From contig JAGIQG010000020.1 of NCBI GenBank assembly GCA_024679065.1, forward strand, positions 35,898,001-35,962,000: DNA of 64,000 bases. Reading direction: 5' to 3'. The DNA is from Sphyrna mokarran. Its lineage: Eukaryota. The notes beneath the pieces are model-generated. The model was not told the origin of the DNA. It did not search any database and saw only the letters and a program-made list of their open reading frames with translations. Shown here in pieces: positions 22,453 through 54,665 of this stretch. The position numbers and the translations under genes were made by a program. How positions within the stretch are numbered: position 1 is the first letter of the stretch; the number at the start of each line of letters is the position of its first letter.

Positions 22453-25400
22453 TTTTAAATACACTCAGACGAGTGCCTAGTTCGAGTCTTTACGTCGCTC
22501 GTCGACGTTTTTGCCAACCTCTAGCGAAACCCCAGTCAGGGGGGCTCACTTGATCTTGATTGAGGTACGTGTGTTGGAGTCACCTCTAAGATGTTACTAG
22601 CTAGAGAACGTGAGTTGGGGTCACAGCTAAGGTGTTATAGCTAGGTCGTGTTGTCATCCCAGGTGTGTATGGGCTTACTGGTGAGCCAATTTTGTCGGTC
22701 CTTGGTACTCGGGTCTCTGTACCCGCGTGCATGGGGTGTCAATTTAGAGGGAATCATGCCGAATTAAGGGGGTTCATTTCATTGACACTTTAGTTTCGCC
22801 AATCAGCCTGTTATAGCACGTTTTTGGCCATGTGGGAGGAAACCGGAGTGCCCGGGGAAACCCCACGCAAGCACAGGGAGAATGTGCAAACTCCCGCAGA
22901 CATTGACCTTGGCCGGTAATCCGCCCTTGATCTCCGTAACTGCCCAGCCGACAGTGCTAGTCACCGGGCTGACGTGCTGCCCACAGTCAGTCCATGTCAG
23001 CTCACACTACCGGCAGTGAAGTTCTGGATCACTCTCAGATCTCCACCCAAGAACCATCCATGCACCACCCGCCGAGTGCATGCCCCTTGTCATAGACAAG
23101 GTGGACTGTGACACCTGTAGGTGTAATAGGTGTTAGTATACATATTTACACATCACACGCTGTACAGTATATACAAACACACAGTCCGACAAACACCAAA
23201 GAGTCCTCCATATTGACATATGGGCTCTGCAGAGGGCAGTTTGCCATGATGTCTGACAAGTGGCCAGCTTGTCCTCCGGTTGTGATCGCCTCTCACCTGT
23301 CGTTGAAGATCCCCAATATCTCCAACGGGAGTGACAAGGTGAGCCTTGAAATTTGTTGGGCGAATGAACGGAATCTCTTTATTCCCAGGAAGGCCATGAG
23401 GCTGTTATTCTTTTCCAACCATTTGCCCCTGGCGCCGACAACAAATCCAAAGTATTTGGGGTTCGGGCATCCCGTCAATTCCTCAATTTCTGGTCCCAGA
23501 TGTTGGTACTTCTGGCACTTCTCCTGCCACGCCTTCTCCAGACTGTCATAGTTGTCTTCAAACCGGACTGTCACATCCACCACCGCTACCTGCTGATCTT
23601 TTTCCCTCTTGAAGACGATGTCCGGCTTCCAGAGGCTGCCGTCCTTGGCAATGAGCCTTGGCTCCAGGTATGATGTCCAGCCGTATTTTCCAACATACTT
23701 ATGAAGTTGGTCCAGGATCTTATTATGGCGTTTGATCCGGCAGTTTTTCACGAATGGGCAAAAGCCTGAAATGTGACCGAGTGTTTCAAGACCTGTCCCG
23801 CACCTTCGACAGGTCTTTGTGGCAGAGGGGTTCCCTCTTGACAGGGTCACCCTCGTCGGGTATAGGTTGCACCGGAGTAGCATGTTATATACCAGGCGAT
23901 GGGACTTCAGCTGGTATGCAGCCTTCATCCAACTGTTTGAAATTCTGTCATCGTGGTAGTAGTGAACTCCCACTCCTTGTGATGTGAGCTGTCTCCACTT
24001 GTGGAATTCCCATTCCCTCCACCCAGCATATCTATTCAGTGGTTTGCTGGGTCCTGTCTCCTCGGCCGCCAGTATCGGCAGTGCGGCTCTGATCATGGCT
24101 GTTTCGTCATTGCCACCGAATTCCCTTGTAGGCATGAAGTCTTCGATGTCCCTCAGAGCCTTGAGGGATCTCAGATCTTCGATGTTTCTGCCAACGTCCT
24201 GTTCACAGAACTGGAATGAGGCGCGAATGACTTGATCTGTGGAGGCAGACAGTGCTTCCCATTTTCGGATCACCGCAGATGGTATCTGGATCTCGAGCTT
24301 AGGAATGCCCAGACCTCCATTTCGCGCCCGCGAATAGAGGATTCCATCTGTAGTATGAGGTGGAAGGTGCAGGAACTGCTTGACAGCATGGCGTATTAAT
24401 TGGTCCAGTTTTACCAGCGTGTTCTGTGACGCTTCAGTTAGGATCAGGTGATAGTACAGCCTTGGTATGACATGGACAGTTAGCAGCTCGACGCGTTGCC
24501 TTGGGCGAAGAGCTGCTGCTTGTAGACTGGAGATCCAAGTCTTCAGCCTGTCTTCCCATGCTCCTTCTTCCACACCAGCCCACGGGTCTATCCGGGCTCC
24601 CAGGTATTTCTCTGTCTCACCTGGTGGGATGTATGCAATCTCTTCCTTCTGAATCCTCCAGTTTTTGCATTGATAAATAAAGGTCTTCCTCTTACAGGTG
24701 AAGTGGAATCCTTTGGTCTTGTTGATGTTGACAGTAAGACCAGTCATTTCGCAAAAAGTCTGAAGAACCTTCAGGTTCCGTACCATCCCGGTGTGCGAGT
24801 CACTGAGTAGGGCAATGTCATCAGCGAACGCAAGGGCGGAGCAGTTGATTCTCACTCCATCTAGCATCATACTGACACCAGACTTAGCCGCTTCCAGACT
24901 GCACAGCAGCGGATCCAAAGCAATATTGAATAGTACCGGTGAGAGCGGGTCTCCCTGCTTGACACCCCTCTCGATTGTTATTGGGGTGGTTTTCGACTTG
25001 TCGCCCTCCACCACCGTTGTGTTGCCAGTGTAGAGATTCTGAATGAGCTCCACAAAGGCGTCTGGTAGTTTGACCCTCTGTAATGCTTTAATGAGTAGTT
25101 TGTGACCAACTGAGTCGAACGCTTTCGCCAAATCAACAAAGACGACTGCGAGGTCCTTGTGGTTTTTCTTAGCTCCCCTCATTATATTTTGCAACACTGC
25201 AATGTTCTCATTGCACCCGGGAGTAGCTGCCAAAAACCCTTTCTGCCTTGGGTTTATGTCGACTGTCTCACTCAGTCGTTTCGCCATGATCTTTGTAAAT
25301 AGGCGCGGCAGCATTGGACCGATGGTAATTGGTCGCCAGTTGTCAATGTTTTTAAGGCGTTCCCTGTCCTCGCATTTTGGGATCAGGACCGTTCGACTCT

Positions 25401-25864
25401 GTTTCATACAGAGAGGGATCGTCTTTGAAGCCAGCCACAAGGAGAAGAGACGAGGTATGCGGGTTTCGTAGGCCTCGTGTATCTTCCGGATGTCCTCCAA
25501 TTTCTTCCCATCCGGTCCAGGCGCGCTATCCTCCTTTATGCCCTTGATGGCCTGGGTGACCTCCTCTTCGGTGATTGGCTTCATCAACTCACCGTTATCT
25601 GTATTCCCATTGTACGCTTGGAATTTATTGATATTTGCCTTATTGTTCTGACTGGAGAGTTTCTCCCGAAAGCTTGCCTCCAGTTCCTCAGTCGTAAGTG
25701 GACATTTCATTTGTGTAGGCGCGCCCATGATCTGCCAGGCTAGTTGACGCCTATTGTTCTTATAGAGCATCTGTGTTGCTCTAAAGACGGATTTCTGTTT
25801 TGCCCATCGTTTCTTTGCTCCACTATTAACCTCGTGCCGAGGCCCTCGCATGAATTTCATGAAT
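22453..25864 (-). mobile_element. 5'-truncated R2-clade non-LTR retrotransposon inserted outside rDNA
   Basis: CpG-rich block with sharp boundaries. Contains the RT-RLE ORF and a ~840-nt 3' UTR ending ATTTAAAA. Both flanks belong to one interrupted host repeat and no rRNA sequence is nearby. Confidence 0.9.
22784..22982 (-). mobile_element. tRNA-head plus V-domain SINE core embedded in the R2 3' UTR
   Basis: Minus strand GGGCAGCACG..ACTAGCACTG..GGAGTTTGCACATTCTCCCTGTG..CTCCGGTTTCCTCCCACA..GATTGGCGAAACTAAAGTGTC is collinear with the HE1 copies in this window. A and B boxes are degenerate and the HE1 tail is absent. Confidence 0.85.
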
Positions 25865-49017: not shown

Positions 49018-49439
49018 GTTCTGACTAGGCTGTTGTTGCTGGCTCAGTATCCCCGAGAAGGATGACCTGATCAGAGGAATTTTTTGTTGCGGAAGTTGGG
49101 CTGTAGCTCGAGTCAGACTGGATGCTCTTTGCGGGTATAGATCTGAAATTGGATACGGAGTCCAGGTAAAGTTCGACTATCACTCCAGTGACAGAGAGCA
49201 GCAACTGGTAGTCTGATTGCTGCAGGTGTGGCACACGTTCTTTACTCCGGTAAACAATCGCGGCGACGAACAAAATGGCTTGTCTTCTCTTAAATATAAG
49301 AAGCAGGAAAAACGGGGGTGTAAGGCACTCTAGATAAAATCTACACGTCAACACCGAATTCCTGCCGTCGTCGTCGTTATTGTTCCTCCTCCCCTGTTTT
49401 TCAAATTCCAACCTCACGATCCTAAGTACGTTCCATTTG

Positions 49440-49640
49440 CAACCGTTTACCTCAGCGCGAGCTTCAAATAACGACCATCCCCGCCAGGCCCCGCCCGACG
49501 GCACCGATTCTGCCCAATCGCGGCCTGACGTCTCCGCCAGCCGCTTGATGATTGGAGCGTGGCGGCCAACCGTCGCTCTGGCGCCGCGAGGACTCGGCCC
49601 ACTCTGATCCGCGCACCTTCGGCAGACGTCATCTCACCAT
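49440..49640 (-). promoter_or_regulatory. CpG-island promoter of SMTN, with a possible short non-coding exon 1
   Basis: Very CpG-dense. GC box GGCCCCGCCC 49487-49496, CCAAT 49514-49518, ATTGG 49551-49555, CRE-like TGACGTC at 49526-49532 and 49625-49631 (minus). Candidate donor GAG|GTAAAC at 49450. Confidence 0.75.
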
Positions 49641-53789: not shown

Positions 53790-54665
53790 CACTAAGATTG
53801 AGACCATCTGTTCAACTGCTCAGTACTCTAATTCCTTTGTTCTAAATCGACAATTTTTCCTATTTTCCTTAAGTCAAGCTAATCTTAATAATGGCACCCC
53901 CTTCCTGGTCCTTGACTCCATTCCCACAACTACTGACCAAAAAGCCTTTGTGGTGCATATGACACCTGACATTGTAAATGATTCCATGTCAGCACTGTTC
54001 CTCTTTCCCTTTCTGAACTGCTGTCAATGTCTCAACCTCAGTAAGTTTTTGAACATGTATCTCTCAAATCTGTGCCTGTGACCATGATTTAGGCTTCTGC
54101 TCCATTTGCTATACATCTTGTAGGACAGTAGCATCAACCTGCATGACATGGCCCAACTCTGCCTCATCCCATGTCACTTACATCCTCAGCTTTGTCACCT
54201 TCAGACTCAAATTTTCCAATGCTTTTCTGGCTAAGCTCAAGCTAACCCAATCTCTTTACTCTGTTGCTCATATGCTATCATTGCTGATTTATATTGGTTC
54301 CAAACCCTCCAACATTTTCAATCTAAAATTCTCATTGTGTGTGTTTCCCTACATAACCTCAGTATTTCCTTTCTTTCTAACCTTCTCCACTTCCATAACA
54401 ATAACTATCCCATTTCATATCTCTTGTGAATTACCCTTTTGTGAACATTTGCTACAGTGGTTTCAGTTGCCTGGACCGTATGCTTTGGAGTTCCCTCCCG
54501 CACCCCACTGTTTCTCCACCTTCCTCCTCAAAATGAAACTCATCAAATTTTTGTTCATTCCTCCTACTATTTCTTTTCTTGGATCAGCATTCGTATTTCT
54601 CTGATTATGCCTTTGCAAAGCGTTTTGCAATGATTCTACATTAAGGATGCTGTATATATGTAAGT
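53790..54665 (+). mobile_element. Highly decayed L2-type LINE
   Basis: Remnant LADLYW (L2 L.SLHWLP region) and L2-like end CTACATTAAGGATGCTGTATATATGTAAGT. Confidence 0.5.

Follow-up and report, generated by a model that had tools for sequence, protein, structure and literature searches.

As Ogiwara is said to have described in 1999 and 2002, sharks and rays harbor a pair formed by the V-SINE HE1 and the CR1-type LINE HER1, in which the SINE borrows the tail of the LINE. The locus described here resembles this pair in that a tRNA-derived head and a V-domain are collinear with a free SINE. However, the relationship is a different one, since here LINEs carry the SINE core, without the SINE tail or a working B box. 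HE1 is listed as the shark V-SINE (PMC3747384), and the V-domain is given a length of ~80 bp (PMC4824008). According to PMC4824008 and PMC5786205, it is not known why central domains of SINEs, V among them, have stayed conserved in animals.

Three features of the present system are already known from other elements. Capture of a V-SINE by another mobile element is illustrated by MER6/MER6A, a mammalian Tc1/Mariner MITE with a headless Ac1-like V-SINE (PMC6887750), which, like the R2 studied here, incorporated a V-SINE and disseminated the V-domain with its own copies. MER6 belongs to the DNA transposons and is non-autonomous, whereas the shark R2 carrier is autonomous and RNA-templated; in the latter, moreover, the head was kept, constraint on V has been measured along its master lineage, and two more families received the core. 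Foreign sequence fixed in an R2 3' UTR is known from a fish lineage that holds a 28S-derived piece (PMC5035012). That piece is rRNA and tied to a shifted insertion site, while the shark piece is a SINE core and its family is dispersed. Finally, the R2 SIDEs and R2/R1 hybrid SIDEs of Drosophila (PMC3414825) are non-coding, combine a 5' ribozyme of the R2 type with the 3' end of R2, and swap modules between non-LTR families. The shark passenger family described below is built alike, but it holds a SINE core derived from the R2 UTR and lies outside rDNA, and the element in the window is the autonomous helper.

The closest chondrichthyan lineage-A R2 that we have seen is R2-1_STig from zebra shark (PMC13188248), a 28S-targeting element. 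By eye, its N-terminus with zinc fingers and Myb is closely similar to that of the family studied here, and the last ~90 nt of its UTR are the same. In contrast, this UTR measures ~210 nt and carries no SINE core or accompanying module (PMC13188248, Table S2, by eye). The word "SINE" does not occur in the main text of that paper, and no V-SINE within the UTR of an R2 or CR1 turned up in a search of the literature other than the original V-SINE papers (1999, 2002) and Repbase/Dfam.

A SINE core within the 3' UTR of a shark R2 element

The window, i.e. the whole stretch of 64,000 nucleotides that we analyzed, contains a truncated R2 copy and a free SINE used for comparison. Their features are as follows (CR1-V, a CR1 family, and SIDE, the passenger family, are described in the next section):

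22453..25848, minus strand: 5'-truncated lineage-A R2 non-LTR retrotransposon, outside rDNA, with a TAGC 3' junction
23293..25848, minus strand: R2 ORF fragment with the reverse transcriptase (PF00078, E 2.8e-35) and the C-terminal endonuclease region
23293..23425, minus strand: end of the R2 ORF, a homologue of which persists in old CR1-V UTRs and marks R2 as the donor
22453..23292, minus strand: R2 3' UTR, 840 nt (~210 nt in the related zebra-shark R2)
22983..23115, minus strand: U, a non-SINE piece of 133 nt directly upstream of the SINE head, with a predicted closing stem, hairpin and long stem; found in CR1-V, deleted in younger SIDEs
22906..22982, minus strand: tRNA-derived SINE head, with a D-arm-like hairpin retained and a degenerate B box
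22828..22905, minus strand: V-domain, held by purifying selection in both R2 and CR1-V; also slow-changing in SIDE
22700..22827, minus strand: remaining SINE-derived sequence, as far as ~22784, and rapidly evolving UTR; shared in part with CR1-V
22453..22545, minus strand: native R2 3' core, also present in SIDE, zebra-shark R2 and the oldest CR1-V; likely the protein-binding end, judging from PMC12180492
56590..56926, minus strand: free tRNA-head V-type SINE copy, the comparison sequence

The R2 copy of the window begins at ~25848, not at the stop-to-stop ORF start, and its ORF stops at 23293 on the minus strand. Its assignment to R2 is based on a single ORF whose reverse transcriptase is nearest to R2 proteins: R2 proteins from birds and turtles are its best structural matches (E ~1e-176), L1 reaching only 1e-30. 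Searches of the same genome with the two halves of the UTR returned 474 and 593 first-look candidates, of which 40 each were scored, and a search with the C-terminus of the R2 protein returned 614, of which 150 were scored. Full-length relatives measure ~4.95 kb and encode a 1355-aa ORF. Three zinc fingers and a Myb motif were recognized by eye at the N-terminus of three of them (L224, L225 and L047) and are missing from the truncated window copy.

One full-length copy, L047, is flanked by 28S sequence at both junctions and lies at the 28S site AAGG^TAGCCAAA. Insertion at this site accounts for 1 of 124 distinct 3' ends, in a census that fuses copies with identical flanks and thus undercounts copies nested at one repeated site; most of the other ends begin with TAG or TAA outside rDNA. 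The 28S insertion specificity of the family is thus relaxed. The other two full-length copies (L224 and L225, on G000:C860 and C993) have unbroken 1355-aa frames and lie outside rDNA, at target sites that resemble the 28S upstream sequence. They open with a few 28S letters and represent naturally relaxed-specificity R2 elements. Three further copies on one contig (L031, L033 and L042, G000:C960) have identical 3' flanks, suggesting a local repeat or a segmental duplication as their target. Two more stop-to-stop frames were noted in the window, at 49025-49633 (minus strand, 202 aa) and 54053-54604 (plus strand, 183 aa).

The middle of the 840-nt UTR is occupied by a segment of 199 nt (22982-22784, minus strand). 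The original prediction had read it as collinear with HE1/V-SINE in the same orientation, and this reading held: identity to the free copy of the window is 70% along 134 nt (E 3e-9), and all 13 of the free copies taken from elsewhere align as well, at 78-88% local identity (scores 51-123, shuffled maxima 20-27). It shows the order of an HE1-type V-SINE, a tRNA-derived head followed by an ~80-bp V-domain. The names HE1 for the SINE and V-domain for the core are what we take these parts of the R2 UTR to be, and the limits of V (22905-22828) were drawn from a motif after one alignment had been viewed. Rfam and ARAGORN returned nothing at threshold. The losses that had been noted were found as well. 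The B box reads GGCGGATTACC and is degenerate across R2 subfamilies, so that the intact A and B boxes of an active, Pol III-transcribed V-SINE are not present. The CR1/HER1-derived 3' tail is missing too: the long tail of the free SINEs is absent, and homology to them ends ~45 nt past V. No TSD was seen by eye. CpGs are indeed retained, with 12 in the 199-nt segment against 1-7 per 200 nt in free copies. The conserved unit reaches past the SINE, with U (23115-22983) lying directly upstream of the head.

Fixation of the core in R2 and its spread to CR1 and SIDE elements

The capture had been predicted to be old, with the core travelling as part of the R2 RNA. This view is well supported: the core is found in every sampled subfamily, forms one clade apart from free SINEs and is missing from the zebra-shark R2 UTR. 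U, head and V are whole in 92 of the 94 distinct copies that keep the stop region, which answers the question of fixation among family copies; the two exceptions are L161, without U, and L156, with a damaged V. A first alignment contained the segment in 48/48 rows, with subfamilies ~89% alike, and the segment persists in older copies down to ~73% identity. An insertion into the window copy alone is rejected by this presence across family copies. A young free SINE subfamily was also sought as the source and was not found; the 13 matches to a pattern combining an intact B box with an R2-type V start group with ordinary free SINEs. One contig of a second species (organism C) spans 22876-23315 with 53 differences and shows the same arrangement, which is thus not limited to one genome. 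Three short motifs had 0 matches in Table S2 of PMC13188248, where cells show 400 letters at most, so that longer shark R2 UTRs are only partly visible, and where a UTR cell is lacking from several rows. Altogether, these data indicate that the SINE core was gained in the present R2 lineage and then fixed. In L156, the oldest-looking R2 copy, part of V is apparently inverted and 19 nt are deleted (L156:1980-2060), probably by damage after insertion.

The head, V and R2 3' end had also been proposed as the layout of an R2-mobilised SINE. This idea stood in part. No stand-alone family running from GGGCAGCACG to the R2 tail was found, but a non-autonomous R2 passenger does combine head, V and R2 3' end, behind a ribozyme-like 5' part of its own. 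An R2-specific head pattern had 53 matches. Thirty of these loci were read, 29 having R2 sequence upstream; among the remaining 23 matches, 22 lie at R2 places by coordinate and one is a truncated R2. Only one of the 53, L066, starts at the head, and the R2 tail is missing from it. Reads of organism A showed neither an excess of depth from head to tail nor a pile-up of read ends. L066/L228 (G000:C113:62308700-62309020) is a lone young R2 piece that starts 2 nt before the head, lacks the R2 tail and ends ~250 nt later with a short tandem duplication.

The passenger was found through a motif of the 3' core, which has 387 matches. Among 30 loci, 22 are elements of ~1.5 kb without a match to the R2 ORF, consisting of a 28S-like leader, ribozyme-like modules, head and V, and an R2 3' end. 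With no ORF, this leader, the ribozyme-like 5' part and the R2 3' end, the family belongs to the SIDEs; the window copy is not a SIDE. One copy (L273) keeps most of U, and the other 21 contain head and V without U. We had considered the SIDE junction as an independent break at the head; this was rejected, as it corresponds to a deletion of U that ends ~7 nt upstream of the head. We also discarded U as a fourth ribozyme-like SIDE module, since nhmmer found no match between U and 61 modules or the R2 5' end. In younger SIDEs (L262, L270 and others), a hairpin-like unit is repeated 2-4 times in tandem immediately before the R2 3' core. In the tree, the cores of R2, CR1-V and SIDE form one clade (100/100) against 19 free SINEs, and the SIDE cores nest within R2 on starred branches. 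This topology shows a single origin of the captured core in the three families.

The second carrier was recognized in the flanks of old R2 copies, which showed a 70% match to 23121-22790. The source of this match is the 3' UTR of one CR1 family, here called CR1-V, where the module lies between the ORF2 stop and the CR1 tail; the other CR1s of the genome have short UTRs without it. A motif of U has 26,790 exact matches genome-wide, and 30 of 30 loci examined are CR1-V. No T-arm was seen in ~59 younger CR1-V copies. A targeted search for the T-arm gave 45 matches, of which 36 were examined, and revealed it, whole or in part, in 8 older copies of CR1-V. The absence of the T-arm was thus dropped as a proof of direction. 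The tree by itself did not discriminate between the two directions, R2 to CR1 or the reverse (AU p 0.40).

The old CR1-V copies are informative in another way. In L322, the order is CR1 ORF2, the last ~110 nt of the R2 ORF, U, head, V, the R2 3' terminus and the CR1 tail. The R2 ORF end of this copy scores 120 against a shuffled maximum of 29 (tblastn E 2.3e-4), and its R2 terminus 64 against 32. Weaker R2 ORF ends are present in L198 and L203 (57 and 37, against ~30), the signal being absent from the four other copies tested, and the R2 terminus is found in L320, L319 and L314 (37, 37 and 34, against 28-30). In the young copy L174, neither is detectable. The terminus is native to R2, since zebra-shark R2 has the same one. 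Because old CR1-V copies hold an R2 ORF end and an R2 3' terminus around the core, the transfer went from R2 to CR1, a 5'-truncated R2 having inserted between the CR1 stop codon and the CR1 tail. Later deletions then trimmed the CR1-V UTR while sparing U, most of the head and V. The route of the core is thus from SINE to R2, and from R2 to CR1 and SIDE.

R2 and CR1 also meet at another place. An old R2 subfamily (3' flanks of L134-L164, G000) occupies one site in CR1 ORF2, TA^TAGGCCGG, within codons for RPVSL. Of its 21 copies, 17 lie at this site in CR1-V, ~1.4 kb upstream of V, and 3 more in other CR1s at the same codons; young R2 copies and SIDEs also insert at this site. Some of these R2 copies may be nested units moved by CR1. 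In addition, L142:2040-2330 is a recombinant in which an R2 body is joined to a CR1-V tail, with the switch inside V.

Constraint on the V-domain and its possible causes

The V-domain had been described as well preserved, and it proved to be the most constrained part of the R2 UTR. Between the majority rows of five R2 subfamilies, it shows 8/296 changes, compared with 100/700 at fourfold sites, 179/1614 in the other UTR and 17/343 in the 3' core. The head (27/280) and U (53/504) change no more slowly than the other UTR (p 0.53 and 0.75). All these chained subfamily comparisons have branches in common, which makes their p-values too small, and the oldest R2 group contributes two usable rows only. 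The single comparison G1-G6 gives 6/78 for V versus 59/197 (p 4e-5). After insertion, changes are not rarer in V (4.3% versus 3.6%), and low mutability thus does not explain its slow evolution.

The two other families behave similarly. In CR1-V, there are 4/82 changes in V and 3/58 in the head versus 52/132 at fourfold sites; the C1-C3 comparison (4/80 versus 11/98) is not significant (p 0.18). In SIDE, V versus the comparison sequence shows 4/83 against 95/799, 0/81 against 53/727, 7/82 against 116/809 and 4/82 against 83/805, as raw counts. Between R2 and young CR1-V, V differs at 12/77 sites, U at 50/132 and the post-V region at 23/66. Natural deletions removed the T-arm in CR1-V and U in SIDE and spared V. 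In these alignments, the V-domain changes slowly in R2, CR1-V and SIDE.

U is predicted to fold better than shuffles (z -3.07). In an alignment of 32 copies of R2 and CR1-V, 95.8% of the cells of a predicted structure of U and the D-arm are paired; it shows 11 two-sided changes, a count inflated by the relatedness of the copies. The SINE piece folds no better than shuffles (z -0.95) and two-sided covariation is almost nil in V, for which reasons V is conserved as sequence. U itself, a conserved predicted RNA fold, has no Rfam match, and neither the UTR of zebra-shark R2 nor the CR1s without the module contain it. Splice-like motifs were noted around it: a donor-like CAG|GTGAGA overlapping the stop codon (23296), a branch-like TACTAAC (23138-23132) and an acceptor-like CTACAG|G (23115) before U, the latter kept in most R2 and CR1-V copies. 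A spliced intron from the donor-like site at the stop codon to the acceptor-like site at 23115 was discarded, with 0 genomic copies showing the exact joined form.

We propose, as a fairly probable reading, that a V-type SINE core was fixed in the shark R2 3' UTR, that its B box was lost, and that V evolves slowly likely as a cis-acting RNA element that raises the chance of being copied. At the outset, a SINE would have inserted in the ordinary manner, on the sense strand, into a master copy of R2 with a UTR that was already enlarged or in the course of enlarging. V would then raise copying success in cis. Our best guess is that it would act through a host RNA-binding factor, by way of stability, export or delivery to the ribosome or RNP, and not through the R2 protein. 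Supporting this idea, the part known to be bound by R2 proteins of the A clade is the terminal ~65 nt (PMC12180492), from which V is 375-450 nt away on the upstream side; moreover, CR1-V kept V but lost the R2 3' core.

Alternatively, V could owe its retention to a role at the DNA level, as an enhancer, an insulator or a chromatin signal aiding transcription of dispersed copies. Such a role would matter to an R2 whose copies left rDNA and Pol I read-through, as the single 3' end in 124 at 28S indicates. Conservation of V in primary sequence with little covariation would agree with it, and transcriptional and epigenetic roles are among the proposals made for SINE central domains (PMC4824008). 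However, >4 kb separate V from the 5' end of the element, which measures 4.95 kb in all, the B box has degenerated in R2 and is deleted from younger CR1-V, and the conservation of the adjacent U as an RNA fold points to selection on an RNA region. We thus consider a DNA-level role unlikely.

Another hypothesis is that V is a passenger whose apparent conservation results from repeated recombination or conversion with the V copies of tens of thousands of CR1-V and free SINEs. The opportunity exists, as V-like reads are 30-60 times deeper than those of the remaining UTR, the old R2 subfamily at the RPVSL site mostly resides close to a CR1-V copy of V, and the R2/CR1-V recombinant L142 switches inside this very domain. 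Yet R2-specific V letters persist across R2 subfamilies, R2 and young CR1-V differ at 12 of 77 V sites, and trees group the cores of R2, CR1-V, SIDE and free SINEs by family, which makes this hypothesis quite improbable. Finally, the head could still start Pol III transcripts, or RNase P could cut the tRNA mimic, so that selection would act on a short head-to-tail RNA; 2 of 14 listed internal 5' junctions at the head start (L066/L228 at 22984, L161 at 22982; a weak hint at most, from a small sample partly selected by head pattern), the end of the SIDE deletion ~7 nt upstream of the head and the D-arm-like hairpin retained with two-sided change would fit, but the degenerate or deleted B box, the lone and tailless head-start match among 53 and the flat read profile of organism A make this very improbable.

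Coming back to a cis-acting RNA element, a broader version can be formulated, which we put forward tentatively, as possible rather than probable. V would be a portable RNA enhancer of retrotransposition, independent of promoter and LINE protein. Its capture by R2 would have been selected, an off-target R2 insertion would have carried it into a CR1 UTR, where it would have helped to produce tens of thousands of copies, and the R2 passenger would have inherited it. If this is true, a relaxed-specificity R2 would ferry functional RNA modules from one LINE clade to another, unrelated one.

One and the same V is near-constant in three families that depend on two different enzymes, with a B box that is decayed or deleted. 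In view of the natural deletions, the T-arm, U and the R2 3' core can be ruled out as partners that V requires, and its function is narrowed to ~80 nt located inside R2. Since TPRT and cell insertion assays exist for R2 (PMC12180492, PMC13188248), this position makes the function of V testable. If V proves functional, it would be a template element useful for R2-based gene insertion. For the elements themselves, the passage of the core from R2 to CR1-V provides a concrete route for the exchange of UTR modules between unrelated LINE clades.
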